A stretch of DNA of 64,000 nt, taken from contig DOSJ01000004.1 of NCBI GenBank assembly GCA_003514005.1, positions 37,533-101,532 of the forward strand. Direction: 5' to 3'. The notes below the pieces were generated by a model. That model was not told the DNA's origin. It did no database searches and saw nothing but the letters and a program-made list of their open reading frames with translations. The translations under genes and the position numbers were made by a program. This DNA is from Candidatus Falkowbacteria bacterium (lineage in GTDB: Bacteria > Patescibacteriota > Patescibacteriia > Patescibacteriales > UBA12075). Below are positions 2,605 through 47,202 of the stretch, in pieces; positions within the stretch are counted from its first letter, which is position 1; each line of letters starts with the position of its first letter.

Positions 2605-5600
2605 ATGCTTGTGCGCAAGAACAGATATCGAAAAATTGTGAGAAATTTTTCTCGATTTTTTGGTCATAAAAACAAAATAACCAGCCAGAGGCGTGTCTAC
2701 GTTTCTGGCTGGCGTTTTGTTTTCGCAAGCTTTATCATATTTTCGATTTTTGCTTATTTTTTTCCGTTCGGACGATTGTTAAATTCGATCAAAGCCTTTG
2801 GTGGGCAAACGGAAAAAATCAACCTGTATGCCAACTATATTCAATCTGAAGAAACGGATGACTTTGCGCAAGGCTGGCACAACAAAGAAAAAGCCGGCGG
2901 CTTGCAAGACCTTGGTCCGAATGCGGACATGCTCGAGTTTTCCGATGAAAATTCCGCTTTTTATTCTGGCGGAAATTTTAGCTTGATTGCCGGGAATTTT
3001 CAATTTTTAACAGAGGCGGCGAATAAGATTATTGAAAATGAACAAGCCGAAGATATTTTGGCAGAAGAACAAGGTGCGGAAATAGTTGATGAGTCTGCTG
3101 ACCTGGAAGATGACACCGAGTCTGAAGATGAAGTCAATTCAGGTGATGAAGCTAATCTGAATGAGGTAGACGAAAATGTGTTTTTGTCAGACGAACAGGG
3201 TGATGACAATTTTGATCAAGAAGAAGAAACCATAAATTCGGCTGATTCAAATTTGACAGAGGAAGCGAACAACATTGTTGACGATAGTTTTGTTGAATCA
3301 GAAAATCTGGATAAACCAGATGTTACTTCAGAAACGACTAAGAGTGAAATTAAAGACTCGGAAGAAACAGAACCGGTTGTAGAACCATTTGACAATAGCC
3401 AAACTCAGGTTTTGATTGAAAGTATTCCAGTCGTTGAAACGGAAACCGAAGTAGTCGGATCTAATGAATCAGGGGCAGAACCCGAGGCCGAGGTGATTGG
3501 GACAGATGAGTCCGTTGCCGAGCAGGTTGTTTCTTATTTAGACAAATTTAAAAAATATTTTATTGCAAAAGCCGCGAACGCGCAAAGCTTTGTCAGCGCG
3601 GAAATTAAAACTTTGGAAGATTTGGGGACATTTAAATCAGCGGTAATTAATCTTTCTTTGGCAATCCATTCCGGAGATATTGCCGGTGATGTTATTGCGG
3701 AAAATATGGATAGCCCGGAAGCTGATACTGCGGAGACGGGGCAATTAGAATCCGATTTTGATAATTCTTTAATAACTATTTGGTATTCGCTTGGCGAACA
3801 AGCCGTGGAAACTGATTCTGACGCGGCAAGCAATACAGATAATCTTTTGTGGCAAAAGCTGGATGTGATTCAATCGAGCAGTGTTTCCAATGCCCTTAAT
3901 AACGGATACTTCAGTTTTGCGGCGCCGTTTTTGGAATCTTGGCAGGATATAGATAATCTAAAAATTAAGCTGGAAGTTTTGGATAATGGCCGGAAAAACT
4001 TGATTTATCTGGATAGTGTTTGGGTTGAGAGCGTATTTGAACGTGAGTCCGAACTGGACAAGCTAAAACAGCGCCAGCGCTGGGAAGAGGCCTTGGACGT
4101 TTTGTCTGACAACTTGATATTCAAAGCCGGTGAAGGCGGCGAGTTGAAATTCCAATACAACAAGAATGAAGAGCGGATTTGGGAAACGCTGGGAGAGTTT
4201 TTGGGTATTGGCAATTTTTGGAAGAATGTTGATTTGGCAATCGTATTGTTTGATCCTTCCGGAGCTGAAACCAATATTGATCTGACTACGATATTTGAGA
4301 GCGACGGAATATTTACCGTTCGTTTGCCGGATACGCTCGCGCTTATGCCCGGCCAATATCGATTGAAGTTTTTTATCAAAGACAGCTCAGGTGAAGCAGT
4401 GGAGGAATTTGAAAAAGTACAAGAATTTTATTGGGGAGTTTTGGCAATGAATTTTAATAAATCCGAATACGAGGCCGCGGAAACCGGTTTTGTACAGATG
4501 GCGGTCCTGGATGACGGCGGACATACGATTTGCAACGCCGAGGTGAACCTTGAGGTCAAAGATGCAAATGGCGATACGCAAATATTTTCGACAAGCGAAA
4601 CCGATGAAGCGAAGCGAATTGTCGTTTCCAAAGAATGCGGTCCAGAAACGGTTACGAATGTACCGGATTATTCGATGCATTATCAGTTTGGTGATAAGGG
4701 AAACTATGAATTCAAATTGACAGCCAAGACTTCTGCCGGAGAGAAAACTATTTTTGAAACAATTGAGGTGAAAGATGTGGGCGCTTTTAGCGTGGAGCGT
4801 TTTGGGCCGACGCGTATTTGGCCGAAAGCGGATTATGGGATGAAGATGAATGTTCTTAGTAGAGAAGATTTTGTTGGAAGTATAGTTGAGACTGTTCCGA
4901 CAGGGTTTAAAATTTCTAATTTCCAATTTCTAATTTCTAATGAATTGCAAAATTTTCAATTTTCAATTGACGAGTTAGAGAATGGAAGCCAAATTACGAT
5001 TAAAGATGTGAATTTAAAAGCTGGGGAGGTTTTGGATATCAATTATACTTTTGATGCACCGGATCGGTCGCCGGAATTGTATCTAGTTGGGCCGCTCTCA
5101 ATCCAAATCGAAAACCCGAAAAGTCCCGATGGGACATCGGGTCTTGATCGAAAATCGGAAATCGAAAATCGCTCCTGGCAGATCGCGTCCGATTCGTTTG
5201 TTAAGCGAGCGCGAACTGTTATGTTTCAGGCTGGGGTTTATAATGACGTGGCAGGCGGGACCGGGCAGAATACCAATAATGACCATGTTTTGCCGGTTTT
5301 TAATTGGAAATTGGCAGAAAGCGGCGTTACGATAAAGAACGCTTATGTTGTTATGGAAACGCAGTTTGAGGCTTATAATACTACCGGTGTTGCTTATAGC
5401 GGCTATAAGCTTGGATTTGATGCTTGCGTTGAAGATTGTACAGCCGCGGCTTTTGGCGCCGGGGGCGGTCAAATAGCAGATGACAATGCTAATGCGCTTG
5501 TGTATGATGATACAGAATCAAACAACGGGCGCTTTCTTTTGGATGTGACGAACGAGGCACAGATTAGTGCCTATACCGGTGATGGCGTATTGATGGAGTC

Positions 5601-8600
5601 GCAGTTTGGCTATCGCTTAAAAAACAGCTCGGCTTATTCTTCGATAGCGAATGCCAGTGCAATGTTGATAGTCACGTATACATATGATATTGATTCGCCG
5701 AATATTACTAATACGGTTATTTATCCTCTGGATTCCGACACCGGTACGAACTATGGCTCTATGCAAGCCGCCCAAGCTGCTTGCACGGCTGACAGCAATT
5801 GTCCGACATTTTCTTATAATATGACATTGCCAGAGTGGTCGGGAGTCGCGACTTCAAGCAATAGGGTTTCTCAGTGGTTCAAAATGTTTGCCGCGCCTAC
5901 TGCCAATACGACAACTGATTTGCGCCCATATCTAGATATTCAGACCATAAATAACAATAGCAGTGCTTTTCATTTTGAAGAAGCTCTTTCTGGCAATGGC
6001 AGTACGCCGCCGATGTATTTTTCGGACTGGTCAGGATCCGGATACGCCGAGAATTTGGCGCAACAAACCGAACTATATGTCAATACGACTAATTATGTTT
6101 TGGGCGGCGAGGTTACGGAAACTTATATCGCCTCTAGCTCCGCGCCGGTAAAAACACGGACTGTGTCTTTTCCGATGGGTGTTATTTCAAACGGTAATAC
6201 CGTTGCTTTGAATAGTCAAACAGCAAATGTGTTTTTTCCGGAAAATGGAAGCGCGACTGGTACGGTTGATATCAAGAGTGCTTGGGTTAGAATAACGGCG
6301 AATGGACATACGGTTAGCGGAACTACCTATACCGCGAATGTATCGACAAAAACCGGAAATAATACTACTACCGGAAATCTGGCTTATCAGTTTCGCTCTT
6401 CGGTTGCCGTAACTAGTCCGGTTTTAAATATAATCCATATAATACCTTCAAGTGATTATACAGAGCTGGAAAGCGCGACAGCCACATCCGGTAAGGCGGT
6501 TGTCGTGAATCTGACATATCTTAACGCCTTGTTTAATGGCGCATCCGTGGAGCTTATGATTACCTATACTTATTCCAGCGAGCAGTCTGGGTATCTTTCC
6601 AGTTTGAATCTTTTTGGCGGACAAGCGGCAAGCGCGCCGGCAACTTCTACCGTTTTGGCAACCGCCAATTCTGTGTTTCCAGAATCGGCAAACAAGACTT
6701 TACTGGCAGCCGGTTTGCGCGCGCATTATTTGAACTCAAACAGCTCAGCCGCGATGGGCACTACCGTTCATTTGTCAACGGCAAATTTGGCGATTGGAAC
6801 ACCGAATTGCGGTTCACCGGCTTATCGGGCGATTCCTGATAGTGTTAATATGACAACAGAAATGCTAGTTAGCGTCAGCGGAGCAATGACAACGGATGAT
6901 AATCAAGCGTATTCCGCCTGCTATGCCAGTGATAATACGGCTATAACAACGGATTCGGCGAAAATGAACGGGACATTGACCTATACTTACGGCTGGACCA
7001 ATACGCCTCCGGTAAGCTCTTTTAATAGCGCAGTTTTTCGGCGAGACGGCAGCGGGACAGTTGATTTGGATGTAGAGGCTGATGATGCTGATGATCATGA
7101 CGTGCGCGCAAAGCTAGAGTTTGCTACTGGAACGACCTGCGTTTTTAGTGCGCCCGGTGACCCTTTGCTTGATGAAATAAATGAAAATATTACGGCTGAT
7201 TTTGCCGATCCATATATCGAGAATGATAATATTTATCAGATTGGAACTGCTAATGGCTATATTAAAACTGCCTCTGGCTCGAATTCGGTTTCTTTTGATT
7301 GGTTGGCAAAGCAAAATTTGGACAAGGTTGAGGGAACTTATTGCCTCAGGCTGACAGCGAATGATACGTTTGCCGATCAGAGCGCGCCGGCGACGACTAC
7401 CGTATATATTGACACTTTGCCACCAACTTCGCCTGGACAATTAAGTCTGAATAGCAGGACAGGGACTAGCGTAACTTTGAATTTTGGAGCTACAACGACC
7501 GAAACAAATTTTAATGAATATAAGATATTTTATAAAATCGCGAATGGCACGGATCCGACCGAGAGCGACAATATGTGGGCATCCTCTTCAGACATTAATC
7601 TGTATAATAAATTTTTTAATGATAAATCTACCACGACAATCAATGTTAGCTTGGTCGGCAGTACGACATATAGCTTTGCGATTTGGGCTTATGATACATA
7701 CGGCAACAAAGCCAGTTCGTCGCGGGTTGATATAATGACGAATGACGCGCCTTTGAGCAGTTTTAACACAGCGGACACAAAGCAAAGAAATGATGGCAGT
7801 GGAGTTGTTGATATTTCGTTGGAGATAGACGATTTGAACGATCATAATCAGCTGTCGGCAAAGCTTGAATACGCATTGGGAGCAGATTGTATTTTTGCTC
7901 CGGGATTGGACCCGCTCTTGGATGAAAATCCGGCGCATGTATCCGCGGATTTTGGCTTGCCCGGAGTGTTGAATGAGAATGAATATCAGATTGGTAATGC
8001 AACCGGCTGGATCATGACTTCGCCTGGAGCAAACACGATTAATGTGGATTGGCTTATGCGGCAAGACGAGGAAAATGCTGATAGCACATATTGTTTGCGT
8101 TTGACAGCTAATGACAGCTTTGATATTCAAAAGACCCTAGCAACCGCGACAATTACGTTGGATAATGTTAATCCAACTGCACCTGGCGCGCTAAGTTCGG
8201 CCGGAGTAACAACCAATAGCATTGATCTGGCCTATGATACTGATAATATTTCAAGCGACACAAACGAGCCTACTGTAAACGCATACAAAGTATATTATAA
8301 AAAAGCGGAGTCAGGGGTAACAATGAACGATACAGAAATCGATAGAACGCATTTTAATACCTACGATTTTAATGGCGCGACATCAACTTTGATAAGCGGA
8401 CTAGAGCAGAATACTTGGTATGTCTTTAATATTTGGTCTTTTGACGCGTATGGCAACATGTCAACAGGAACCGAAACTGCGATCAAGACCAGCGCGACAA
8501 TCAAGAATGAATCGTTAACTTTTGTAAATCCGCGAACAGAAGGGTTGGATACAAACGTTGCGGTAGCGCGACCGGAAAATGAATGGAATTTCCGAGCCGT

Positions 8601-8991
8601 AGTTTCGGAAACAAACGGTTATTTTGCGCTGGATACCGTAAATCTGCGCTTGGCAAATCAGACCGATGATTCTTCGCCATTTTCCGATTTGGTTTTCTCA
8701 TGGGATCAAACGTCCGGCGTATTTACGGAAATAGGCGCGGATATCGGTAACGCGGCAGAGCTTGGTACAGGAAGCAGTGCAGATTGTCTGGGCAATATTT
8801 GTACTTTGGATTTTTATATAGTATTTACAAAAAATTATTTGGCTACCAGCACAGCTTATGCGGTTGGACTTTTGAGCACGAATGACAGCGCTACGACCGA
8901 TGAAGATATGTATTCAAATTTTTACCAAGTACGTTATCCGTTTGTCAGCCAGACGCATTATCGTTGGCGGAATGATGATGGAGGGGAGTAG
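2605..8991 (+). CDS. Giant membrane-anchored surface protein (2128 aa), paralogue of the 5230-aa ORF
   Basis: 6.4-kb uninterrupted ORF. It has a basic N-terminus plus one hydrophobic helix, and a ~170-aa Asp/Glu-rich tract. A ~255-aa module (aa ~606-862) is shared with aa ~158-402 of the 5230-aa ORF. It carries two cassettes of a ~130-aa 'DGSG..D...YCLRLTAND' domain plus an FN3-like 'LNFGATTTExNFxEYKIxYK'. It ends 'HYRWRNDDGGE*'. Confidence 0.9.
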   Translation: MLVRKNRYRKIVRNFSRFFGHKNKITSQRRVYVSGWRFVFASFIIFSIFAYFFPFGRLLNSIKAFGGQTEKINLYANYIQSEETDDFAQGWHNKEKAGGLQDLGPNADMLEFSDENSAFYSGGNFSLIAGNFQFLTEAANKIIENEQAEDILAEEQGAEIVDESADLEDDTESEDEVNSGDEANLNEVDENVFLSDEQGDDNFDQEEETINSADSNLTEEANNIVDDSFVESENLDKPDVTSETTKSEIKDSEETEPVVEPFDNSQTQVLIESIPVVETETEVVGSNESGAEPEAEVIGTDESVAEQVVSYLDKFKKYFIAKAANAQSFVSAEIKTLEDLGTFKSAVINLSLAIHSGDIAGDVIAENMDSPEADTAETGQLESDFDNSLITIWYSLGEQAVETDSDAASNTDNLLWQKLDVIQSSSVSNALNNGYFSFAAPFLESWQDIDNLKIKLEVLDNGRKNLIYLDSVWVESVFERESELDKLKQRQRWEEALDVLSDNLIFKAGEGGELKFQYNKNEERIWETLGEFLGIGNFWKNVDLAIVLFDPSGAETNIDLTTIFESDGIFTVRLPDTLALMPGQYRLKFFIKDSSGEAVEEFEKVQEFYWGVLAMNFNKSEYEAAETGFVQMAVLDDGGHTICNAEVNLEVKDANGDTQIFSTSETDEAKRIVVSKECGPETVTNVPDYSMHYQFGDKGNYEFKLTAKTSAGEKTIFETIEVKDVGAFSVERFGPTRIWPKADYGMKMNVLSREDFVGSIVETVPTGFKISNFQFLISNELQNFQFSIDELENGSQITIKDVNLKAGEVLDINYTFDAPDRSPELYLVGPLSIQIENPKSPDGTSGLDRKSEIENRSWQIASDSFVKRARTVMFQAGVYNDVAGGTGQNTNNDHVLPVFNWKLAESGVTIKNAYVVMETQFEAYNTTGVAYSGYKLGFDACVEDCTAAAFGAGGGQIADDNANALVYDDTESNNGRFLLDVTNEAQISAYTGDGVLMESQFGYRLKNSSAYSSIANASAMLIVTYTYDIDSPNITNTVIYPLDSDTGTNYGSMQAAQAACTADSNCPTFSYNMTLPEWSGVATSSNRVSQWFKMFAAPTANTTTDLRPYLDIQTINNNSSAFHFEEALSGNGSTPPMYFSDWSGSGYAENLAQQTELYVNTTNYVLGGEVTETYIASSSAPVKTRTVSFPMGVISNGNTVALNSQTANVFFPENGSATGTVDIKSAWVRITANGHTVSGTTYTANVSTKTGNNTTTGNLAYQFRSSVAVTSPVLNIIHIIPSSDYTELESATATSGKAVVVNLTYLNALFNGASVELMITYTYSSEQSGYLSSLNLFGGQAASAPATSTVLATANSVFPESANKTLLAAGLRAHYLNSNSSAAMGTTVHLSTANLAIGTPNCGSPAYRAIPDSVNMTTEMLVSVSGAMTTDDNQAYSACYASDNTAITTDSAKMNGTLTYTYGWTNTPPVSSFNSAVFRRDGSGTVDLDVEADDADDHDVRAKLEFATGTTCVFSAPGDPLLDEINENITADFADPYIENDNIYQIGTANGYIKTASGSNSVSFDWLAKQNLDKVEGTYCLRLTANDTFADQSAPATTTVYIDTLPPTSPGQLSLNSRTGTSVTLNFGATTTETNFNEYKIFYKIANGTDPTESDNMWASSSDINLYNKFFNDKSTTTINVSLVGSTTYSFAIWAYDTYGNKASSSRVDIMTNDAPLSSFNTADTKQRNDGSGVVDISLEIDDLNDHNQLSAKLEYALGADCIFAPGLDPLLDENPAHVSADFGLPGVLNENEYQIGNATGWIMTSPGANTINVDWLMRQDEENADSTYCLRLTANDSFDIQKTLATATITLDNVNPTAPGALSSAGVTTNSIDLAYDTDNISSDTNEPTVNAYKVYYKKAESGVTMNDTEIDRTHFNTYDFNGATSTLISGLEQNTWYVFNIWSFDAYGNMSTGTETAIKTSATIKNESLTFVNPRTEGLDTNVAVARPENEWNFRAVVSETNGYFALDTVNLRLANQTDDSSPFSDLVFSWDQTSGVFTEIGADIGNAAELGTGSSADCLGNICTLDFYIVFTKNYLATSTAYAVGLLSTNDSATTDEDMYSNFYQVRYPFVSQTHYRWRNDDGGE

Positions 8992-8992
8992 T

Positions 8993-9025
8993 GATTTGCG
9001 ATTTCCGATTTGCGATTTAGGATTT
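8993..9025. repeat. Tandem heptamers (GATTTSC)x4.7
   Basis: GATTTGC GATTTCC GATTTGC GATTTAG GATTT immediately follow the stop codon of giant ORF 1. Confidence 0.9.
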
Positions 9026-9030
9026 AAAAA

Positions 9031-9050
9031 ACGGCTGGTGCCGTTTTTTT
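9031..9050 (+). terminator. Rho-independent terminator of giant ORF 1
   Basis: ACGGC-TGGT-GCCGT followed by T7. Confidence 0.75.
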
Positions 9051-9123: not shown

Positions 9124-9954
9124 TCACAAATATTTTTCTATTATCACCCTATAATTTTTACAAAAATCATCAATAAAATTTTGGTCGTTAAAGAAATTTT
9201 TCAGATCATAGGCTAATTTTTGCGGTGTTACATTTTTTTCGATAAGAAGTTTGATTTTATTTTTTAGTTCAGCCATATTTTTTATGCCATCAGTTTTTGC
9301 AAGTTCGCTCCAATTTGGCTCTATATCATTTTGTAAATACCAAAACAGATCATAAAAATCCCTGCCTTTGATATTTATTTCATTTTTATCGCCTTTGAAC
9401 CAGCTTCGGTTTAATAATGCTCGAATTTTTCCGGTCATTAAATATTCAAGAGAGTAGTTTTTTACAACTGTGTTGTAGCCGAATTTTGAAATTGGATTAA
9501 TTTCGATTTTTGGCTTTGTATATTCGGACTTGGAAAATTCTAGCTTAACATATAAAAAATCGCTTTCAGAAATATTTTTTGATAATCCTAAATTATTCAA
9601 GACTGGAAATTTTAAGTATAATCTTTTGTCGGATTGAATTTTTACATCAATTTCCAAAAGCCCGTTTATTTTAAAATAGTTTACCAATTCGTCGGATAAT
9701 AATTTAAGATCCAATTTTTGAAAACTGTTTGCCGGTAAATCAAAATCTAAATCTTCAGAAAGTCTTGGTAGGCCGTAGCAGATTCGCAAGCAAGAACCGC
9801 CGGTAAAGATGAAATCATTATATTTCTTATTGCTATAAAGAAAATTTAAAACCGGATATTGCAGAAATTCCTTTAAAAAATTTATGATTACAAAATTGGG
9901 AATTCCTAATTTTTGTTTTTCATTTACAATTTCTTTTAAAATATTGACTAGCAT
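9124..9954 (-). CDS. AbiEii/AbiGii-family nucleotidyltransferase toxin (type IV TA)
   Basis: 'FTGGSCLRICYGLPRLSEDLDFD' matches the GGTAL..R.S.DIDF signature of DUF1814/AbiEii. It lies immediately downstream of an AbiEi-like gene. Confidence 0.8.
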   Translation of the reverse strand: MLVNILKEIVNEKQKLGIPNFVIINFLKEFLQYPVLNFLYSNKKYNDFIFTGGSCLRICYGLPRLSEDLDFDLPANSFQKLDLKLLSDELVNYFKINGLLEIDVKIQSDKRLYLKFPVLNNLGLSKNISESDFLYVKLEFSKSEYTKPKIEINPISKFGYNTVVKNYSLEYLMTGKIRALLNRSWFKGDKNEINIKGRDFYDLFWYLQNDIEPNWSELAKTDGIKNMAELKNKIKLLIEKNVTPQKLAYDLKNFFNDQNFIDDFCKNYRVIIEKYL

Positions 9955-9960
9955 AGATTT

Positions 9961-10596
9961 TTAATAATACATTTTTTTAATTAAAGCAATTGCCATTTTA
10001 ATTTTGTTACTTCTGGCAAACACAGCGTATCCCGCCAATTCGTCAAATTCTTTGGCAGATATATTTTCCCAGTTTATCCTTAATTCTTTGATCTCATTTT
10101 CGTTGATTGGTGTGTTTTTGATAAATCGCAAATAAAGATAATCAAAAACCGCTTTGGACTTGGTTGCAACCATAATCGGCGCTGTGTCGATAAATTTGGC
10201 TTCGTATCCACAAAACAATTTAGGATTTATAGTATAATATCTGAACACACCTAATTTGTTTTTGTATTCCCTGGTGCTTTTGTTGGTGACGGATGTAATG
10301 GATCTAACTGGTTCTGATAAAAGCTGATATTTTGACATTATATATTCCAAAGAAAGATAGGACGGAGTAACCAACTGGCCGGCGGCATATTCTAGAAAAG
10401 CATCTTTGTTTACTTCATTTTTATATTGTTCGCTGAAGGTGTATAAACCGTTTTTAAGCGCAATTAAATCGTCACTATTTAGCCAGTATTTTATATTGGC
10501 ATCAAGAGTATTTGCGTTTTTTTCAAAATTTTTTAAAATATCTTTTGAAAAAATCCTTAATTTTGCTGTTTTATTTTTGATTTCGATTAATTTCAT
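9961..10596 (-). CDS. AbiEi-like antitoxin / transcriptional regulator
   Basis: 211-aa ORF ending 6 nt upstream of the AbiEii toxin start. Size and position are typical of AbiEi. A decayed homologue at 59391-59962 shares 'YLS(L/F)E(Y/W)'. Confidence 0.65.
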   Translation of the reverse strand: MKLIEIKNKTAKLRIFSKDILKNFEKNANTLDANIKYWLNSDDLIALKNGLYTFSEQYKNEVNKDAFLEYAAGQLVTPSYLSLEYIMSKYQLLSEPVRSITSVTNKSTREYKNKLGVFRYYTINPKLFCGYEAKFIDTAPIMVATKSKAVFDYLYLRFIKNTPINENEIKELRINWENISAKEFDELAGYAVFARSNKIKMAIALIKKMYY

Positions 10597-10914: not shown

Positions 10915-13900
10915 ATGTTTAGAACGCTAAAAAATAACTGCAAAAAGTTACTGTTTGGGGTAATTATTTTTTTGTTTATAACATTTATTTTTTCGGCAAT
11001 TCCCAGTTCTGCGTCAGATAAAAAAATAATTTATGGGAAGCAGGACATGTCCCTAGAGTTAGTTTCTGAAATTGGCGATATGAAGAGCAATAATTCCGAG
11101 TTGGAACTAAAACTTAAAAAGAAGCGTAAACTGCCCGGAGCTGTTGGCGCTTTTTTTAAAGGTTTTTTTGTGGATGAGTTTAAGAAAGCGGAAATTAGCG
11201 CGGAAATGGTAGAAGGCGAGAGTGAAGAAAGTGATTTTTTTGTTGAAACTTTTTATCAGGAAGACGGTGAATTTTCAGTTCAATTAAAGCCAAAAGGACG
11301 GCAGGTAAAACCAGGCTTGCATAAAGTAGTTATTACTTTGAAAGACGAAAAATTAACCGGTAATGAAACAATCAGTTTTGTGCAGGATTTTAGTTGGGGT
11401 GTTCTGGCTTTTAATAGTAATAAATCAATTTATCAACCGGATGAAAATGCGTATTTGCAGATGGGGGTTTTGGATGAGCTTGGACACACAGTTTGTGGCG
11501 CTGATCTGGAGATGATTATTACCGCACCGGATAAAGGTAAGGCGGTTTTAAGTACAAAAAACGGTTTGATTATCCGCAACCCGGAATGCGGGCCGGATAA
11601 TGTTATTTTAACTCCGGATTATTACGCGAATTATGGTTTGGGAGAGATTGGTGAATATACTGTGAAATTAATCGCTACTACGGAAAAAGGTTCTTGGGAG
11701 ATAAGCGATGTTATTAGCGTGCAGGCCGAATCGCCTTTTGTTGTCGAGCGCATCGGGCCGACGCGTATCAATCCGACAGCGGAGTATGGGATGATGGTGA
11801 AGATTAGGGCGAATGAGGATTTTAGCGGAAACCTTATCGAAAAAATGCCGGAGGATTTTAAAATTTCTAATTTCCAATTTCTAATTTCTAATCAATTACA
11901 AATTACAAATTACAAATTACAAATAGATGATGCTGGAAAAAATTTGATTTTGGAGAATATTATTCTTAAAAAAGGAGATGAGGCAACATTGATTTATAAG
12001 TTTGACGCGCCGGATATTTTTCCGGAATTTTATTTGCTGGGTCCGCTTGAAGCAATCTCCGCCCAAGGCGGACCAGCCATAGGCTGGGAAAATCGCAGCT
12101 GGCAGATCGCGTCGGACGGCGAGAATCAGGTGATTGTGGCACAGAAGATTGCGATTGATGCCGGTACGGCGGACACTGTAAATTGGACAGAAGCGGTTAA
12201 GGCGACATCCACGCTATTTAGCGGAGGACAGAAATATTTTGTGTATGTGACGGCTGGTTTTTCAGGAAGTGTGGCCGGTGTAATTTCGAATTTTGAAATT
12301 TTGTATGGAAGCACGATCCAATATTCCGGCTCAATTGAAGCATCCGGGGATCAAGCGAATGACGCGATGCAGATTTCTTGGTTTGATGTAATGGATCAGG
12401 CGGCAACCCCTGAGGACATTATTTTACGTTATCGCACTGTTTCCGGAACTTCGTATATAATGAACGCGCAGATTGTGGCAATGAATATCAGTAACCTGGA
12501 AACGACTGATTGGAAATATGCCGTCAATTCAACATCGCGCGCTTTAACTACAACCGTAACCGCGGACGCAAACATTACCATGAATAACGCTGATGGCGTC
12601 AAGGATTGGCTGGTGTTTGCGATGGCGGAAATTGATATTTCAAGCGCGTTAAGACAATATGTCAGCCAAATATACAATGGCGCAAGCGCCTCTATGTCAT
12701 TTCAAAGAGAAGGTGAAAATACGAATGAATTTTTACCGCACGCCATATATCGACCATTTGATAACGTGGCGCAAAATACGGTTTTTAGTATTCGCAATTA
12801 TTCAATCACTTCCAATGTTAACACGCACTTGCGCAGCCGCGTTTTTGCTTTGAATTTGAACCGTTTTGAAAGCTTTAAAACATATTATGCAGATCTTCCC
12901 TCGACCGCGATCAACGGTACCTGGACGGTGATAGGTAATTTGAATAGCGGGGGAAATTACGCCCCGCAGACAAGTGGCGACCAACTGATCTTTTCTTCGT
13001 TTATAAATGATATTACGGCAAATACGAATGAATCGGACGATCGTTTGCAAGTGAATGGGGTAACAGTGCCGACCAGCTGGAGCTGGGGGCAGTCGCCGGC
13101 CGGATACCGGACCGGTTATGACGCCGCGGACGAGCCGGTACATAATATTGTCGCAAGAGTAAGCATTCCGACAACCGGACAGACAATCAGTTTGGACGCG
13201 ATTGAGGTGCCCAATTCCACTCAGGTCGGCGACGAGGTGAGCTTGGCCGCGTTCAGTACACGGCTCAAGAATATTAATCGGCCTTTTGGCGTCGTTAATT
13301 CCAAATCTTTCCGCGCGGATGGATCCGGGGTTGTTGATTTTGCTTTTGACGTATCGGATCGCGACCTGGATGACGCGCGCGTTAAAGTCGAATATGAACA
13401 AGGAAGCACCTGCGCCTTTAGTTCGTCTGCCAAGACAACTATCAGCACGGTTGACGCCGATACTACCGCTACTTATGGCGACCCCAAGGTGGATAATACG
13501 AATGCTTATCAAGTCGGTACCACGACCGGTTGGATTACGACTACCTTCGGTACGAGCACGGTCAATTTTGATTGGACTAGTCAGGCCAATATACCTTATG
13601 CATCCAGCACTTATTGCGTGCGCCTGACCGCAAATGACGGAACAAATGATCAGCTGGTATCGGCGACTACAACTGTTTACATCGACAATTTTGATCCGAT
13701 AATTTCTGGTGTTGCGATTCCTGATCGGATGTACAAGATTGGCGACACCATGACCGCGACTATCACGCTAGCGACGGCGGAATCGGATGCACTGACAATT
13801 GGTACTAGCTCTGAAATAAATGGCGGCCCAATATTTAATTTACAGAAAATTAACAACACGACTTTTACTGCCGATTATCTGATAGCAAGCGGACAGACAG

Positions 13901-16900
13901 ATCGCGCGAGCAATACCATCCCGTTTGAAATATCCTTGGTGGATCCTTATCTTAACCAAAGCGCGTCATCATCCGGATCATTCAGCGGCGGATCGATTGA
14001 TGCTAACGCTCCTGAGATAACAGCGGTTGAAATTGTTAATCTGATGTATGGTATAGGAGACATTATGACAGCAACGATAACGACTGCCTTGGATGCCAGC
14101 CTTTATCTTTTGGAGACATCTTCGCTTAATGCCGCAACGAGCGCGACCGCGAATCTGACAAAGATCAATAACACAACCTATACGCTGGAATATACGGTTG
14201 CCGAAGGCAATGTTGATCGCGCAACCGGAACGATACCGTATCATATTGTTTTGCGCGATTCTTATGGCAATATCAATGCGCCGTATGCCGGTGTTTTTGC
14301 GAATGGATCGCTGGACGCGCATGCTCCGATTATCCAGGCCGTTTATTTGAATAACGGTGCTTATGGTATAAACAGCAGTTTGCCGATTATCATTGATACG
14401 GCGGAAACGGGTTTGGCTTTGGGAGAGAGTACCGTGAACGGAAAGACATTATCCGGCTTTTCGGACCTAGCAGATACGACTTATCAGGCATATTATATCG
14501 TGGCCGAAGGCGATATGGACAGAACGGCCGGGAATGTGCCGATTTCGATAATCATGCGCGATAATTATGGCAATGAGAACGCGGCCTATGTTACACCGGC
14601 CGCGAATACGGCTTCAGTGGATGCGCACAAACCCGAGATACTTTCGATCGTTATCCCAAATCTTGTTTACAAAATCGGCGATACGATTCGCGCGACTGCG
14701 ACGGTAGCGGCTGACGTGGCTGCCTATACGCTTGGAACGACAACTGTTAATAATGTTGCGGCAAGTAATTTGCAAAAATATGATAACTCAACTTATACTT
14801 TTGATTATACGGTCTTGTCCGGACATACGGATCGCTCGGCTGGAACGATTCCGTTTTCGCTGATGTTAAAAGATCAGCTGGAGCAGTATAATGATCCCGC
14901 CTTTACCGCGATTACCGCCAATACGGCGTCAATCGACGCGAATGCGCCGGCGGTTTCAGCGCTTAGTTTTGCGCCGTCTTCCGGAGTTCTGAAAATCGGC
15001 GATACGGCAACCGCCACGATTACGGCCGCGAGCGCGGAAACCGGATTGAGCGCGGGCGCGACAATCAATATTAATAGCAAAGACGCAAGAGCCAGCTTTA
15101 CTGAACTTGGTGGTGGAGAGTATCGGATAGTTTATATTGTCGCAGAAGGCGACGTTGATCGTCCGGATAATGATGATTTGCCGGTCAATATTATTTTACG
15201 CGATAGCGCAGGTAATGAATCCGTTGCTTTTCAATCTTCTGATCCGACCAATCGTCCGGGAGTCGATGCCAATCGTCCGGTCATTTCCAATGTAACTTTT
15301 AATATCACATCCGGCGTACTCAAAATCGGCGATACGGCAACAGCGACGATTTATACCGATGGGACAGGGTATTTGGCTGATACGATTACCGTAAACGGCA
15401 TTGATGTTTCCGGCACGTTAGTTTCGGCCGGAGGAAATGATTATACGATTACCTATACCGTGGCCGAGGGACACGATGATATTTTAGACGCCAACGATTT
15501 GCCGATTAATATAGTTTTGAGCGATCCGGCCGGAAATGATTCGATTCCATATACGACAGAAGACGCCAGTAATCGTCCGGGCGTTGATGGACACAAACCG
15601 GTAATCTCCAATGTCAGTTTTAATATCACATCGGGTGTGCTCAAAATCGGCGATATTGCCACGACCACGATTTTTGCGGATGCGTCCGGATATTCGGCCG
15701 GCGCGATAACTATCAATGGTGTTGATGTGTCCGGCACATTGGCTTCAGCCGGCGGCAATGATTATACTGTCAGCTATATTGTTATTGAGGGAAATAACGA
15801 TATTTTGGATGCAAACAATCTGCCAATCAGCATCGTGCTTCGGGATGTGGCCGGAAATAATTCCGTTACTTACGTAACGATTGATTCCGCGAATCGTCCG
15901 GGAGTGGATGCCCATCGTCCGGTAATCAATTCAGCCGTATTTGTCCCGTCATCGGGAATTTTGAAAATCGGCGCAAGCGCCACCGCTACATTATCTGTCG
16001 CGGATGCAGAAGAAAATCTCTCGATTATCAGTGCGACAATCAACTATATTAATGTTGCATCCAGTTTTTTTGAAATCGGTTCCGGTGATTACCGCTTGGT
16101 TTATACCGTTAGCGAGGGCGATAACCCGATTAATGATATTGCCGACTTGCCGGTTTATTTTGTTGTATCCGACGCGGCTGGGAATTATTCACTAGCTTTT
16201 AATTCTTCTGACCCCTCTAATCGTCCAGGAGTTGATGCCAGTCAGCCGATTATTTCCAATGTAATTTTCAATATCACATCGGGTATGCTCAAAATCGGCG
16301 ATACAGCAACGGCAACGATATATTCCGACGAGACAGGATACTCAGCTGGCACGATTACAGTAAACAACGTTGACGTATCCGGCACGCTGGCTTCGGCTGG
16401 CGGCAATAATTATACCGTTGCTTATACTGTGGCAGAAGGGCACGATGATATTTTGGATGAGAATGATTTGCCGATTAATATCGTTTTGAGAGATTCTGCC
16501 GGAAACGATTCGAATCCTTATACGACAGAAGACGCCGGCAATCGTCCGGGTGTTGACGGGCACGCGCCGGTTATTTCCAATGTCAGCTTCAATATCACAT
16601 CCGGTTTGCTCAAGATCGGCGATATAGCGACAGCGACGATTTCCGCGGATGCATCCGGCTATTTGGCCGGAGCGATTACTATTAACGGCGTTGACGTGAG
16701 CGCAAGTTTGGCTTCGGCCGGCGGAAATAATTATACGGTCAACTATATCGTCAGCGAAGGACATAATGATATTTTAGACAGTAGTGATTTGCCGATCAGC
16801 GTCGTACTTGTTGATACGAACGGTAATAATTCCTCGACCTATACGACGGCCGATGCGGGCAATCGTCCGGGTGTAGACGGTCATGCGCCGACTGTGCCGG

Positions 16901-19900
16901 GAAACCTTGGTTTTTATAGTAGGGGAAATAACTCCATTACGCTTAATTTTGGCGCGACAACAACAGAAAGCAATTTTTCCGAATATGTAATTTATTATAA
17001 GGCGGGAACAAGCGGAGTTTCCGAGAATGACAGCCGTTGGGATTCGGGCGATGACGGACATCTAGGGCATATTCTTTTTAGCGGATATGGGTCAACGACG
17101 ATAACGGGACTGCTTTCCCAGACTGCTTATGTTTTTAATATCTGGGCATATGACCAAGCCGGTAATAAGACACAGGCGACAGAGGAACTTTCGGCTGCGA
17201 CGAATTACTTACCGCTTTTATCTGATAATCTAGAACAAAGATTGAATGATAATTTTACGGTTGTTTCCAACAACGCTTGGGCGATCGATCAATCAATGGT
17301 ATTGTCGGCCAGCTCAACAGATCCGGAAGGCGGATATTTTGATTACTATTACGAAGTCATCAGCGCGACCGGCACGCTGACAACCGCGACATCGGTTCCG
17401 GCATCCAGCTGTAATTCCGGAACCGGATTTTTGCAGTGTTCGGAAAAGATTTGGAAACAATCCACCGGTCCGGATTGGTATAACGAGGAATGGCTGTATC
17501 GCAAGCAAATAGTCATTGACTCGGATTTAATCGAAGATGATATGCAGGATTTTCCGATTTTGACCAATACGGTTGATGATGATTTGCGGAGAAATGCCCG
17601 TTCTGACGGACACGATATTTTGTTTACGGCGGCCGATGGCGTTACTAAGCTTTCGTATGAAAGAAAGGTATATGATTCAAGCGATGGCGAATTGATTGCC
17701 TGGGTAAAGACTGATGTTTCTTCTTCAACAGACACGATCGTTTATATGTATTACGGAAACGCGGATGTCGCTTCGGACCAGTCAAGCGCGTCCGGCGTTT
17801 GGGATTCGAGCTACTTGGGTGTTTGGCATATGGATGAGGAGCCGACCGGATCTGCGGATGATATCAAAGATAGTTCCGGCAATAGCCGCCATATGACTTC
17901 GTTTAATATGGGAGCTAGTAAGCGTGTCAAAACCGATACCGGCTATGCTTATGAATTTGATGGCGCAGGCGATTACCTGGAGGACGCGGATGGCGAAAAT
18001 TATATTAATGGACTTTCGGAGTTTACGGTAGAGCTATGGCTGAAATCTGATTTGATTGCGACTGATCGCGGATTTATTATCGGTTCAGCCCCGGCTGGAA
18101 ACGATAGTTTTTTTACCTTGCGCTATGATGATGCCGGAGTTAACGGCGGCGGCAATGATGTGATTAAAGGGGCTATTACGACGACCGTAACTGGCGAGAT
18201 TCAGATGGAAAGTTCGAGTTTTTCCCAGACTACCGATTGGCAGCACTTGGTTTTTCGCTGGGAAAGTGGCCGGCAATATGAGCTTTTGGTTGATGGCGAT
18301 TTGGATACTCCTACTTCTAATGATCCGGCCGGCACAGGTCTTACTTCCGGCGCGTCGACTTTGCGCATCGGGCAGGGCGGAAAAGATATTACAACCGCGC
18401 TTGGTTGGGATGGTTTGATTGACGAGGTCCGCATTTCCAATGTTTACCGTTCCGATGCTTGGGTAAAAACAGCTTATAACAATCAATCCAATTTGGCTTC
18501 GTTTGCCCTATTTGGCGCGCAGGATGCCGTCCGCATATTCAATCTTCCCGAATCGGATGACGGCTATATCTGGCAGGTGATGGCTTGCGACCAGCTGGGT
18601 GCCTGTTCAGAATGGGTAAAATATAATGAAGAGTCGCCGAATTTCAAGGTGGATAATACGCCGCCGACAGCGCCGGGCAGTTTAAGCGAAAATTCCAAAA
18701 CATCAACTAGCGTTACGTTTAACCTGTCGGGCACAAGCACGGAATCGTTTTTCAGCGATTACCGCATTTATTACAAAGAATATGGCGGCGATGTTGTTTC
18801 TACTAATGATTCGTATTTCGGGACATCATCCGACGCGAATTTGTCAAATATCCTTTTTAATGGAGCGTCTACCACTACGGTTCCATTCTTGACCGCCGAT
18901 ACGGAATACCAGTTTAATATTTGGGCTTTTGATGAATCCGGCCAAAGCGCGAGCGCTACGCCGATTGTTGTTACGACAGAGATCGGCACAAATCGTCCGA
19001 CTGGTTTGTTTGACTCGGTCGAGCAGAAGCGGGACGGTTCCGGTAGGATTGATATTGGGATAATCGTGAATGACCTTGATAACAACCCTTCCCGGGCGCG
19101 GATTGATTATGTGTCGGGCGTGGCATGCAATTTTTCTTCGCCTTTGGATCCGTATCTTGATGAAGACGGCGCGAATATTTCAGCGACAAATTTACCGGCC
19201 CCTTTGATTGATAATGCTTCAGCGTACCAGGTTGGTACCGGAAGTGAATGGATTTTGACAGCGCCTGCGGCGAATAATGTAGGCTTTGATTGGCTGTCTG
19301 CGCTTAACTTGTCTGGCGTTGAAGGAAACTATTGTCTGCGTCTGACCGTGAATGACGGAGTATATAGCCAGCTGGTTCCTGCGACATCTACCGTGTATAT
19401 TGATAATGCTAGGCCAAGTTCGCCCGGCGCATTGTCATTGGCTGAAAAAAATACTGAAACCCTGGTGTTGACATTTGGGGCAACCTCTACGGAAACCAAT
19501 TTTGCCGAGTACAAGATATTTTATAAGATCGCGGATGGTACTGCGCCGGATGAATCAGACAGCGTCTTGTCATCAAGTACGGATATTAATTTGTCTGATA
19601 AATTTTTCAATACCGCGGCAACGACAACAATCAGTGATTTGATGGCCGGCACTATATATAGTATTGTGATCTGGGCGTACGATGATTATGGTAACGCCGC
19701 CAGCTCTTCGTATGTGAATTTTACCACAAACCATATTCCCTCCGCGCCGACAAACCTTCGACAATACAAAGCGGACGGAGTAACGGAAATTGTAAACAAC
19801 GGCTGGACGATAGAAGATATCGCGACGATACAAGCCGAGGTTAATGACGGCGATGCCGGCGAAAATATCAGTCTTTATTTTGAATTACTTGCGAATAGCG

Positions 19901-22900
19901 ATACGTTTAGGACTGCGACGACCGTGCCATTCAATGCTTGCGCGCCGGATGATTCCTGGTCGGATTGCGCAAGTAAAATTTGGAAAGTAACATCCGTGGC
20001 CGGCGACTACTCAGTAGCTCCTTTCAGCGGAACAACTAGTCCGGCGAACTTGCCAAATTCCAACAGCGGATTTAAATGGCAGGTTATTGCCTGTGATAAT
20101 GACAACGTCTGTTCGGAATGGACGCGTTATAATGACGCGATTCCGAATTTCAAGATTGATTTTATTGCGCCGACCGCTCCCGGCGATTTAAGCGTTGCCG
20201 CTTATACGAGCAATAGTATCACCTTGAATTTTGGCGCAACCACGACAGAAGAGAATTTTAAAGAGTATATAATTTATTACAAAGAGGGCACAAGCGGCGT
20301 AAATGAAACAAACACAAAGCACGGTTCCAGTACAGATGGCAATTTGGCGCATATTTTATTTAATAGCGCGGCTACAACGACTATTAGCGGTTTGAATGCT
20401 GGCACCGCTTATTTTTTTAATATCTGGGCGTATGACCAGGCCGGAAATAAAAATTATGCGGTTTATGAAATTAGCACGACTACGAATAACAAACCGCAAA
20501 GCAATATTGTATCAGCTATGCAAAAAACCAATGGTACAGGAGGCGTTGATATTGTAATTTCAGCCAATGACGCGGACGTGGAAAATCTGTTTGCTATGTT
20601 GGAATTCGCGACCGGAACAGATTGTTTATTTACATCTGCCGGAGACCCGACGCTTGATGAAATTGATGCTAACGCGACCTCGAGCCAAGCCGATGCCAAG
20701 ATCGAAAATGATAACGCTTATCAGATTGGTAATGCGTCCGGATGGATCGTAACGACGGGCGGAGCAAATGCGGTTTCTTTTGATTGGCTTTCTAATACGG
20801 ATTTACCCAATCAATCGGGAACATATTGTTTGCGAATAAGAACAAATGACGGCCATGAAGACAGTGTGTTTGCCACAACCACGCTCATGATCGACAATCT
20901 CAGTCCGACCGCGCCTGGAAATTTAAGCCTGATTGAAAGCCATGGAAATTATTTTGTTCTTGGTTTTGGCGCGACCAGCACGGAAACGAATTGGTTGCGC
21001 TATCGGATTTTTTATAAGCAAGGCGTATCCACGGTCAATGAAAACGATCTGGAATTAATTGATTCTGATTTGGCTGATAAAAATTATAACAATACGGCTA
21101 CGACTTCTGTTTCCGGTTTGCTTGCGAATACGCAATACAGCTTCCGCGTTTTTGCCTATGATATTTATGGCAATAAAGCGCAATCCGGACAAGAAACGTT
21201 TACTACCAATTCTTATCCGTCTTCCTCGTTCAATTCCGCGGCTCAGAAAATCGACGGTAGCGGAAGAGTGGACATTTCTTTGGAAATATACGATACGGAT
21301 GGGGACAATTGTTATGCCAAGCTGGAATTCGCGACCGGAACGGCGTGTGATTTTTCTAGTCCGGGCGACCCGGAGCTAGATGAAGGTTCAGAAAATATTT
21401 CTGTTGATTACGAACCTTTGGGGATCGCAAATACAAATGAATATCAAATCGGCACAGCGGGTGCGCCGATTATCACAGACCAAGGTTCCAATACCATTGA
21501 TCTGGATTGGCTGTCAAAAAGCAATTTGCCGACAGCGGACGGCGATTATTGTCTGCGCCTGACCGTTACGGACGGGTCGGATACGCATAGCGCGACAACG
21601 ACGCTTACGATTGACAACGCCGTTCCGCAAAGACCGGCTGATTTAACGATCGGTTATGCCGATGTCAGGACAATTCGGCTTGATTTTGGTTCGGCTGGCA
21701 GTGATACGCATTTTAAAGAGTATAAGATTTTTTATAAAGAGGGCGTAAGCGGCGTAGCGGAAACCGATAGCGCATGGGACAAGAATGACGACGCTGCCCT
21801 TGGCATAGAGGATTTTGGCGCAGCCGCGTCAACGACAATCGGCGGTCTTTTGCCTGATACGGACTATGTTTTTAATATTTGGATTTATGATGATTTTGGC
21901 AATAAGTCTTTTGCAAGCGGCGAGATATCCAGCTCAACCTTGGAAGCGGTCAGCGCAACCTGGCGCGAGACCGAGGATACGCCTGATCCGACTACTGGAG
22001 TATATGCTTCAAAAGAGCAGACTGTCCGATTGCGCGTGGCAGTAGCCAATTCCGGGACCTGGAGTACCGAAGATTATCGGTATGACTTGCAATATGGCAT
22101 TAAAGATGGAACTTGTGAAAATGTTTCCGCTTGGACTTTGGTGCCGGCAACTGCCGCGGGTGAACATTTTGAAATGAAATCAAGTGTATATTTTATTGAA
22201 AATGCGTCAACAACGCCGCGTTTAACTGGCGACGGCTATGCATTCCGACCAGGATATATGGTACAAGCACCGTTTAGTCAGACCGGAACGATTACGCTTT
22301 ATGGAAATGAGTATTCGGAATTGGAATATACGATAGCCGCGACAACTGATGCCAGTCGTAGCGCAACATATTGTTTTCGCGCGGTTAATCAGGGCGCGGG
22401 TGTCGATGATTATGGGGTTTATCCGGAATTTTCTTTGACGCCACCTCCCTTAAGCGATTTTGTTTCAGCGGTACAGAGAGACGACGGCAGCGGACGCGTC
22501 GATGTTCGTTTTACAGCCGATGATTATAGTAATCAGAATTTGCGTCTAAGAATGGATTATGCGACCGGAACCTTGTGCGACTTCAGCCAGCCGGGAGACC
22601 TAACATTTGATATTTTGAATGAGAATACAAGCGCAACCTATGGCGACCCCTTGATTGATAATGACGCACCTTATCAGATCGGAACCGGTCTTGCGTATGT
22701 TTTGACGCAATATGGCGAAAATACCGTTGATTCTGATTGGCTTTCCGGTGGCGATCTTGGCGGGATTGAAGGAGAATATTGCCTGCGTTTAACTGCTAAT
22801 GATCTTTTTGACGACCAAACCATACCGGCGACTACGACGGTAATGATAGATAACAAAGCGCCGACAGCACCGGGAAATCTGAGCCTGATGTCAAAGACAA

Positions 22901-26645: not shown

Positions 26646-26656
26646 GTGCTGGTAAA

Positions 26657-26684
26657 ATATTCAATATTCAATATTCAATATTCA
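26657..26684. repeat. Tandem heptamers (ATATTCA)x4
   Basis: Four perfect copies. The same heptamer array recurs at 32037-32090. Confidence 0.9.
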
Positions 26685-35521: not shown

Positions 35522-35539
35522 TAAAAAATTGAAAGTTGA

Positions 35540-35608
35540 AAGTATAAAGTTGAAAGTTGTAAAGTTAAATTTTGAAGATCATACTTTATAACTTTTAACT
35601 TTATACTT
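35540..35608. repeat. Imperfect inverted repeat of AAGTTGA/AAGTATA repeats
   Basis: AAGTATAAAGTTGAAAGTTGTAAAGT pairs with ATACTTTATAACTTTTAACTTTATACTT. Confidence 0.7.
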
Positions 35609-37488: not shown

Positions 37489-37496
37489 GAAAGTGC

Positions 37497-37643
37497 CGAA
37501 TGTCGAGTGTCGAGTGTCGAATTTTAATAACTGTTTATTAATTTTGTTTTCTTATTAATTTATGTTATAATATGTTTATAAATATTTTGTTAATTATTTT
37601 TAAAATTAACACTCGAAATTCGACACTCGACACTCGACATTCG
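37497..37643. repeat. Perfect 28-bp inverted repeat flanking a 91-nt spacer that contains a promoter
   Basis: CGAATGTCGAGTGTCGAGTGTCGAATTT (37497-37524) is the exact reverse complement of 37616-37643. The spacer carries TGTTATAAT at ~37563-37571, pointing at the Hsp20 gene. Confidence 0.95.
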
Positions 37644-37666
37644 AAAATCGACATTCGAAAATTTCT

Positions 37667-39921: not shown

Positions 39922-40052
39922 TTTTACACGAAACATGTAGCACGCAGCACGCAACAATTATAAGTTGCGTGCTGTTTGTTTTGTGTCGTATTGCTTGTTG
40001 CATGTTGCTTGATGCGTGTTGCGTGCTATGTGTTGCAATATTTTTTAACGCT

Positions 40053-43808: not shown

Positions 43809-43879
43809 CGGGCTGTAGTATAATGGTAGTACGCGAGGCTGGGGGTCTTGTAGCCCGAGTTCGATTCTCGGCAGCCCGA
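43809..43879 (+). tRNA. tRNA-Pro (anticodon GGG)
   Basis: Hand-folded cloverleaf. Acceptor CGGGCTG/CAGCCCG, D-stem GTAT/GTAC, anticodon stem CGAGG/TCTTG with loop CT-GGG-GG, T-arm CCGAG-TTCGATT-CTCGG, discriminator A. No encoded CCA. Confidence 0.85.
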
Positions 43880-43895
43880 CGTCGTATCCAAATGT

Positions 43896-43998
43896 AAAAT
43901 GTAAATCTCAAAATTCAAAATTGCAATGTAAAATTTAAAAATTTATTTATTAATTTTTCATTTTAAACTGCAATTTTGAATTATGAGATTTACATTTT
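43896..43998. repeat. Imperfect ~39-nt inverted repeat (hairpin) between the two tRNAs
   Basis: AAAATGTAAATCTCAAAATTCAAAATTGCAATGTAAAAT pairs with CATTTTAAACTGCAATTTTGAATTATGAGATTTACATTTT. 24-nt loop. Confidence 0.8.
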
Positions 43999-44077
43999 AA
44001 ATTATACTAATTTATATAATCATGGGATTTTAATATTTAAAACAAGTTTAAAACCAAAAATATTAAATTAAATAAAG

Positions 44078-47179: not shown

Positions 47180-47202
47180 TAACTAAAATAAATACATTTT
47201 TT

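Follow-up and report, generated by a model that had tools for sequence, protein, structure and literature searches.

Heptanucleotide tracts within coding sequences, heptad peptides encoded by them and a general bias toward simple sequence repeats (SSRs) of period 7 are already known from bacteria. In the neuO gene of the CUS-3 prophage of E. coli K1, a tract of 3-53 AAGACTC units, commonly about 20, is located in the 5' coding region; 65.6% of 64 genomes were found to be phase-OFF, and one culture was 93% ON with 21 repeats (PMC13001214). In Haemophilus influenzae, hmw1A and hmw2A carry strain-variable heptanucleotide SSRs of 13-38 copies upstream of the genes, where such promoter tracts grade transcription, and in strain PittAA an (AATTTTG)14 tract lies inside the 7.3-kb adhesin open reading frame (ORF) of hmw1A and is associated with a frameshift (PMC2651432). 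An over-representation of SSRs with heptameric units in many bacteria was reported in 2007, and polymerase slippage was proposed as its cause (PMC4692102); the described cases include Calothrix/Nostoc, the GGGAATC repeats of Xanthomonas and the TAACTGA repeats of Beggiatoaceae (PMC4692102, PMC4679880). In Borg elements, fast-evolving tandem repeats arise independently in ORFs, where they add peptide segments and create disordered regions (PMC9879509). In this study, we analyzed heptamer tracts inside two genes for giant proteins, here called G1 and G2, in a stretch of 64,000 nucleotides (nt) from a Candidatus Falkowbacteria bacterium (assembly GCA_003514005.1, contig DOSJ01000004.1, positions 37,533 to 101,532 of the forward strand), hereafter the window. 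A preliminary description had proposed these tracts as sites of on/off phase variation. Our results suggest a different picture, in which they are probably slippage-born microsatellites that are tolerated, and possibly exploited, in a variable hairpin which they remodel over evolutionary time.

Both genes are located on the + strand. G1 (2605-8991) encodes 2128 amino acids (aa) and shows just a weak fn3 match, whereas G2 (10915-26607) encodes 5230 aa with five fn3 stretches (E = 3e-35), DUF2341 and PKD-like domains according to Pfam, and has a hydrophobic N-terminal segment. Exact look-ups returned both proteins under the names 'hypothetical' or 'fibronectin type-III domain-containing' from Candidatus Falkowbacteria, in the Parcubacteria group of Patescibacteria. 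The term adhesin, by which they had been introduced, goes further than the Pfam matches, since these comprise fn3, DUF2341 and PKD-like domains only (for G1, the weak fn3 alone), and giant extracellular protein appears to be a reasonable designation. In G2, array 1 (11862-11889, + strand) consists of four AATTTCT units, the second of which is AATTTCC, and array 2 (11894-11924, + strand) consists of 4.4 perfect AATTACA units, four of them reaching to 11921 and TRF (Tandem Repeats Finder) extending the array to 11924 with 100% matches. The eight G2 heptamers first described are therefore present but not contiguous, because a 4-nt spacer (AATC) divides them into two arrays. In G1, array 1 (4911-4938, + strand) has the same 28 nt as G2 array 1, placed at the homologous codons and in equal codon phase, and array 2 (4951-4968, + strand; AATTTTC x2.6, encoding NFQFS) occupies the place of the AATTACA array of G2; it is the same tract that had been recorded as ATTTTCA x2, in another register. 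A third G1 array (5147-5171, + strand; ATCGAAA x3.6, in frame) lies between LVGPL and ENRSWQIASD; this second variable site also has heptamer arrays in two homologous loci, L012 and L034.

The presence of these tracts and their in-frame position were confirmed by sequence reading, TRF, pattern search and shuffling. In 100 dinucleotide-preserving shuffles, the expected count of each 28-mer was 0.00, and the AATTTCT-type 28-mer matches the window twice. When exact arrays of at least three copies with periods of 5-12 were counted, only period 7 was represented, with three arrays in the window and none in the shuffles. Translation across the tracts gives FKISNFQFLISNELQNFQFS in G1 and FKISNFQFLISNQLQITNYKLQI in G2, both in frame, and the G2 peptide given in the preliminary description (KISNFQFLISNQLQITNYKLQI) was correct. 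Array 1 of G2 encodes (K)ISNFQFLIS and array 2 encodes LQITNYKLQI; three 7-nt units, read through all three phases, yield a 7-residue peptide unit (ISNFQFL and ITNYKLQ, respectively). The tracts are found at 6% of the length of the G2 ORF and at 36% of that of G1.

The site was then compared among 14 homologs from a protein search and 159 homologous loci from two contig scans (79 from GTDB species representatives and 80 from metagenomes). The tracts fall between the conserved motifs E.VP.GF.I and K.I.W.V..K.GE...L.Y.FDAPD.SP.YLLGPL, and the variable segment ranged from 27 to 273 nt among the 159 loci. Of the 129 distinct variable segments with a length of at least 50 nt, 33 (26%) had a lag-7 self-identity of at least 0.45, a value reached by no more than 12 (0.8%) of the 1453 flanking windows of equal length, and 7 was the best-fitting period in 44 of these segments. 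The unit itself differed among loci: CAATATC was found in L007 and L008, GGAAATT in L084 and L009, ATTCAAA in L001, TAAATTC in L040, ATACAGA in L148, ATACAAG in L139, perfect CAGCAGA x4.4 in L012, GAGACAA in L061 and L045, CGAATTA in L034, and CAATTTT in L086 and L118, while AATTACA, the unit of G2 array 2, was also present at x3.6 in L106. The arrays of L139 and L155 had equal length and register and differed by a unit swap that runs throughout (ATACAAG vs ATACAGA), a sign of concerted evolution that implies continuing turnover, whether through slippage or conversion. Across Patescibacteria, this position is thus an ancient hot spot of heptamer arrays that remains active.

In G2, the tracts belong to an N-terminal module of two tandem immunoglobulin (Ig)-like beta-sandwiches (aa 153-402; 11371-12120, + strand), and a homologous module in G1 (4420-5190, + strand) has 37% aa identity to it. 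An AlphaFold2 model of G2 residues 153-422, built on an alignment of 16 sequences (A1), was all-beta with two tandem beta-sandwiches (mean predicted local distance difference test score, pLDDT, 79; predicted template modeling score 0.73), and its structural matches were macroglobulin (MG) domains of complement and alpha-2-macroglobulin, integrin leg domains and RbmA. In this model, array 1 corresponds to a strand (residues 164-172, pLDDT about 87) and array 2 to a turn plus a strand (residues 180-186), with pLDDT 84-88 over the array-encoded residues as a whole, so the site is modeled as a beta-hairpin between two strands of the N-terminal Ig-like module, flanked by the conserved motifs E..P..F.I and LK.G....Y.FDAPD. 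Homologs with just 9-12 residues at the site lack the hairpin, which is thus a dispensable excursion from the core fold. In Patescibacteria, the module occurs on its own, as a protein of about 380 aa, or forms the head of giant surface proteins. Elsewhere in G2, a 321-nt tandem repeat (15250-15927; 2.1 copies, 71% matches) was observed, which probably represents duplicated Ig-like or fn3-like domains.

The diversity at this site might have been selected as such, if in-frame slippage (three-unit steps, or compensating changes in two adjacent arrays) varied an exposed hairpin in contact with hosts or phages and thereby provided antigenic or specificity variation. The restriction of the hot spot to one structural site across a deep radiation points in this direction, and so does the recurrence of neighboring arrays with different units, which was seen in G2, G1, L008, L086 and L056. 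Segments can also be replaced wholesale: L118 and L148 are 92% identical over 450 nt upstream (ungapped) and 66% identical downstream, whereas their variable segments are unrelated, and the pair is mosaic, its recombination breakpoint falling at the hairpin or close to it. Furthermore, different units converge on the peptide pattern I-x-N-x-x-aromatic/L-x (ISNFQFL, ITNYKLQ, IGNWKLE and IQNTEYR), although this may merely reflect AT-rich units that contain AAT and ATT. On the other hand, sister clades were constant in segment length (72, 54 or 78 nt) and differed mainly by substitutions, and a collection of 15 billion proteins contained no in-frame length variants of G1 or G2. Selection for diversity therefore appears to be an unlikely basis of the arrays.

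With regard to the reading frame, when one or two units were added to or removed from any one of the four tracts in silico, a stop codon appeared at aa 328-342 of the 5230 in G2 or at aa 775-796 of the 2128 in G1, which agrees with the earlier claim that a single-unit change truncates either protein. However, the composition of the AATTTCT tract sets a further limit. Over 21 nt, a perfect AATTTCT run is read in each of the three codon phases, in one of them as TTC TAA. It is precisely the T-to-C change of the second unit (AATTTCC, read as TTC CAA) that abolishes the in-frame TAA, and its presence is explained by the fact that a perfect AATTTCT run could not be translated. Addition of perfect AATTTCT units in silico, three units included, brought TAA into frame; thus, the statement that only three-unit steps preserve the frame holds for the frame itself, whereas an expansion of AATTTCT by three units still ends in a stop. 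Since any expansion gives TAA, the AATTTCT tract is already at its translatable limit, and it is shaped by selection for read-through rather than for mutability.

The switching model holds that G1 and G2 are contingency loci, in which slipped-strand gain or loss of heptamers flips giant surface proteins on and off at high frequency as a form of bet-hedging. Several features agree with it: the unit is not divisible by three and lies inside the ORF of a surface-protein gene, the truncations described above abolish the full-length product, repetitiveness is long-lived at one site throughout the family, and turnover of the arrays needs either 21-nt steps or out-of-frame intermediates. There are also precedents for heptanucleotide switches within coding regions, namely neuO (PMC13001214) and the (AATTTTG)14 tract of hmw1A in PittAA (PMC2651432). 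As in neuO, a heptanucleotide tract lies in an ORF, its copy number sets the frame and three units encode a 7-residue repeat within the protein (PMC13001214), and the heptad peptide is here modeled as beta-strand (pLDDT 84-88). In contrast, neuO units vary between and within strains, whereas the tracts reported here have no more than 4.4 units, show no variation in unit number between isolates, are invariant in every assembly and have relatives that are all in frame. Likewise, hmw1A and hmw2A resemble G1 and G2 in combining an AT-rich heptamer tract with the gene for a very large surface protein, but the hmw tracts are long and variable, whereas those of G1 and G2 are short, capped and conserved.

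Comparison of homologs and assemblies spoke against switching. The lengths of the tracts, 4 (one unit imperfect), 4.4 and 2.6 units, are below what is expected of hypermutable loci, growth of the AATTTCT tract means a stop, and the longest perfect heptamer tract at the site was 5.0 units among 138 distinct segments of the family. All 159 loci were in frame through the site, as against the 65.6% of phase-OFF genomes for neuO; 153 of them passed automatic anchors, and the other six (L008, L009, L084, L088, L113 and L140), which had missed the regular expressions, were in frame on inspection. The preliminary description had itself named repeat counts that change among relatives in frame-preserving steps only as evidence against its proposal, and this is the pattern that we observed. 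In pairs of loci with at least 98% identical flanks, the segments were identical or of equal length, with unit number unchanged. The exact 2128-aa G1 protein was present in 26 assembly blocks of the collection, which equals the number with the neighboring gene on contigs >50 kb (7 at 50-200 kb and 19 at 0.2-1 Mb), and exact G1 and G2 were represented in at least seven named records of metagenome-assembled genomes (MAGs), three of them Rifle MAGs (US73, US83 and US93) and four TPA MAGs (HAM, HAY, HBI and HBT, with the proteins HAM88814, HAY12079, HBI97240 and HBT27983). No length variant of G1 or G2 was found in their 90% identity clusters, and neither the assemblies nor the 159 loci contained copy-number polymorphism with out-of-frame alleles. 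An assembly artefact could be excluded, as the source genome locus was 100% identical over 20 kb in the JGI (3300025309), ENA (ERZ27254739) and NCBI (GCA_003453605.1) assemblies. In the metagenome and GTDB contig scans, no same-species variants were found, the best match being just 56% identical. Finally, G1 and G2 have equal copy number and share the variant unit, which would be unexpected if the two tracts were hypermutating independently. Thus, the proposed contingency locus was not borne out and we regard it as very unlikely; a change by one or two units would be a knockout, and on present evidence one that is accidental and deleterious rather than a switch in use.

Truncated homologs were also considered as candidate OFF alleles. 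The four closest protein matches (P0001-P0004) end at or near the site and were followed on their contigs; none of the four represents a plain gain or loss of units. In L001, a lone in-frame TAA occurs 21 nt beyond the array; the frame of L002 is shifted within non-repetitive DNA; L003 runs on into unrelated dehydrogenase-like sequence and is a chimera or rearrangement; and in L004 each of the three frames contains stops and the contig terminates in an AAAATTG array. Several short homologs terminating after LLGPL (P0005-P0010, P0012 and P0014) were considered as OFF alleles of the second variable site, and this was rejected for P0005 and P0006, whose contigs were inspected and contain genuine stop codons with unrelated genes behind them, so that these are stand-alone proteins of about 380 aa. 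Programmed -1 frameshifting was rejected as well, given that no X XXY YYZ slippery pattern occurs in the coding frame and the ORF is continuous. The tracts do not appear to be targets of a diversity-generating retroelement either: only the two in-gene tract copies, which are 100% identical, occur in the window, with no template copy (reverse transcriptase was not searched for), and the variation between lineages concerns unit and length and not adenine-specific substitutions.

The similarity between the first arrays of G1 and G2 extends to an island of 36 nt (TTTAAAATTTCTAATTTCCAATTTCTAATTTCTAAT), located at 4906-4941 in G1 and 11857-11892 in G2 (both + strand), with 36/36 identity. The module DNA of the two genes is only 51% identical over 1218 aligned nt, and the second-longest identical run is 15 nt. 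Codon bias was rejected as the origin of this identity, because the probability of 12 identical codons for a fixed peptide is about 7e-5 under window codon usage and the island contains rare codons (TTC 13%, CTA 7% and TCT 14%); in the rest of the module, identical residues use the same codon 52% of the time. No copy of the 36-mer was found in the other loci, where the best match was 30/36. The closest relatives of G2 are L084 and L008 (53-56% identity, compared with 43% for G1), and these have other arrays at the site (GGAAATT x5 in L084; CAATTTT x3 and CAATATC x4 in L008). The presence of the 36-mer in this genome only, together with the different arrays of closer relatives, implies that the identity is an intragenomic phenomenon, for which short-tract gene conversion or parallel homogenization is the simplest explanation. 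The first array is most likely held identical between the two old paralogs by short-tract gene conversion, and equal copy number and an equal variant unit would not be expected of two independently hypermutable tracts.

The identity might also mean that the nucleotide sequence matters and the peptide is immaterial, with the 36-mer serving as a recombination or protein-binding site (for exchange or deletion of N-terminal cassettes) or as an RNA signal. Perfect identity within 51%-identical DNA would fit such a role, as would the direct orientation and equal codon phase of the copies, by which recombination would yield an in-frame chimera of the G1 N-terminal and G2 C-terminal parts. An AbiEii-like gene (PF08843, 276 aa) and a 211-aa partner are located on the - strand between the two giant genes (9124-10596), flanked by the direct 36-mer copies. 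However, the 36-mer is present in no other genome, paralog pairs of other genomes have unrelated segments, and the locus is unrearranged in all assemblies. No RNA structure beyond chance was predicted at the in-gene tracts (folding z = -1.0 and +1.3), no inverted partner of them was found, and Rfam identified just two tRNAs across the window and no family at the tracts. In addition, the unit changes from one array to the next within the window, which makes a sequence-specific binding protein unlikely. We therefore consider a nucleotide-level element extremely improbable.

Heptamer arrays are not confined to the giant genes. Among the 104 TRF arrays with at least three copies in 480 kb of related loci, 48 had period 7. 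The window contains 17 heptamer arrays. Although intergenic DNA makes up only 14% of the window, 11 of the arrays are wholly intergenic, with perfect ones at 26656-26684 and 1725-1745, and one more extends across a stop codon; the arrays frequently start 2-8 nt past a stop codon or end 9-12 nt ahead of a start codon, each with a unit sequence of its own. Period 7 is thus the main tandem-repeat class in these genomes and is mostly intergenic. This agrees with the heptameric SSRs described from other bacteria, in which period 7 is dominant among the longer SSRs and arrays are mainly intergenic, variable between relatives and partly arranged as inverted pairs; both the predominance of period 7 and the mainly intergenic location with variation between relatives were found here. 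Unlike those bacteria, which have one or a few units per genome, these genomes have a separate unit for nearly every array, and no in-frame array that recurs at one structural position of a protein family has been described from those bacteria.

For six of the intergenic arrays, an array of the complementary unit lies close by (e.g. CGAGTGT and ACACTCG), and inverted heptamer pairs, each with its own unit, were located at 35525-35608, 37492-37658, 39938-40036, 43890-44003 and 1649-1756. A hairpin with a 26-bp stem is predicted at 35540-35608 (z = -7.95), and a 29-bp stem is predicted between 37497-37525 and 37615-37643 (z = -9.5), enclosing an AT-rich promoter-like loop. The intergenic inverted pairs matched no Rfam family; they could possibly be terminators, RNA-processing sites or elements of translational coupling. 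One of them, AAATGTA x7.4 (43890-43940, with its partner at 43967-44003), lies exactly between the tRNA genes 43809-43879 and 44078-44159. At 8993-9050, a GATTTGC x3.7 array that starts 2 nt past the G1 stop codon is directly followed by a classical intrinsic terminator (AAAAAACGGCTGGTGCCGTTTTTTT). The sole coding heptamer array of the window beyond G1 and G2 is an in-frame AAGTAAG x4.4 (48648-48678) in the ORF 47176-48966.

Taken together, our preferred explanation, which we consider probable, is that slippage-born microsatellites are tolerated in the variable hairpin and possibly exploited there. Replication slippage favoring 7-nt registers would seed arrays throughout these genomes, and in-gene arrays would persist only where the protein tolerates them, the dispensable hairpin being one such place. 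Selection would hold the tracts in frame, stop-free and short (with a maximum of about five perfect units in the family), while in the long term new units would arise, spread through the array and decay, so that the length and sequence of the hairpin are remodeled between lineages. Within this genome, the first array would in addition be kept identical between both paralogs. We infer tolerance or diversification as the reason for the persistence of the arrays.

Several points weigh against this explanation. First, the comparisons were made among consensus assemblies, which are blind to minority frameshift alleles, and the 26 assembly blocks may not all be independent of each other. Second, the structure model rests on a 16-sequence alignment. 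Third, gene conversion of a 36-nt tract without flanking homology would be unusual; the alternative is parallel homogenization from a shared ancestral AATTTC-type unit, and units related to this type are carried by L086, L118 and P0011. Finally, if tolerance alone were at work, arrays would be expected in further loops and linkers as well, but over 22 kb of G1 and G2 these are free of arrays except for the second site at 5147-5171, and the fact that one position is repetitive across a deep radiation could mean that mutability itself is selected. It is conceivable, though doubtful, that repetitiveness as such is conserved, with a 7-nt microsatellite being kept at one hairpin throughout the history of the module because slippage supplies compensated or three-unit variation and out-of-frame intermediates act as low-frequency OFF states.

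Some other features were observed in the homologous loci. GC-rich mini-hairpins, in frame within the AT-rich segment, are present in L004 (3131-3160; CCGCC-CAA-GGCGG and CCAGCC-TTC-GGCTGG), and a further one lies, likewise in frame, in the AT-rich heptamer segment of L172 (4028-4041; CCGCC-AGTG-GGCGG); they look like small inserted elements. A near-identical peptide insert, QRGTDAEQNAE[QL]T, appears at two positions of the module (columns 219-233 of alignment A1 in P0009 and columns 328-347 in P0014), which suggests a small sequence that enters in frame at more than one site. In L003, a gene for a Y1 (IS200/IS605-type) transposase (157-831) is located directly upstream of the module gene, and in L172 genes of the 23S_rRNA_IVP family (1-26 and 2554-2925) lie on both sides of the upstream neighbor. 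Despite the mini-hairpins and the Y1 transposase gene, insertion of mobile elements was rejected as an origin of the variable segments, as no repeated element was found.

The known repeats inside ORFs of Borg elements have unit lengths divisible by three. G1 and G2 are similar to them in that tandem repeats within ORFs add new peptide segments, whereas the unit of G1 and G2 has 7 nt, is translated in three phases and is modeled as beta-strand. The novelty of the locus is hence narrower than initially assumed: coding heptanucleotide tracts, including one in a giant adhesin gene, were already known from neuO and from hmw1A of PittAA, while among the papers that our literature searches listed, none described heptamer repeats or SSR phase variation in the Candidate Phyla Radiation (CPR). 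The listed papers likewise contained no account of a period-7 tandem-repeat bias including inverted intergenic arrays for Patescibacteria. What is new is the setting in giant proteins of Patescibacteria, the fixed structural position with turnover of units, the combination of strict frame with short, capped tracts, and the homogenization between paralogs.

Members of CPR/Patescibacteria rely on surface contact with their hosts and cannot be grown alone. If the on/off reading were true, this would be the first contingency locus proposed for them; as the data are against it, a wrong annotation can be spared. Should the less likely case hold that repetitiveness itself is conserved, episymbiotic CPR would have a combined system of antigenic and phase variation, derived from a lineage-wide heptamer slippage that also makes intergenic hairpins. 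Under the explanation that we prefer, a single hairpin in which heptamer microsatellites are repeatedly born, homogenized and replaced in frame would provide a natural case of non-triplet repeats building protein sequence, and the hairpin may mark a variable, probably exposed, face of these giant proteins.

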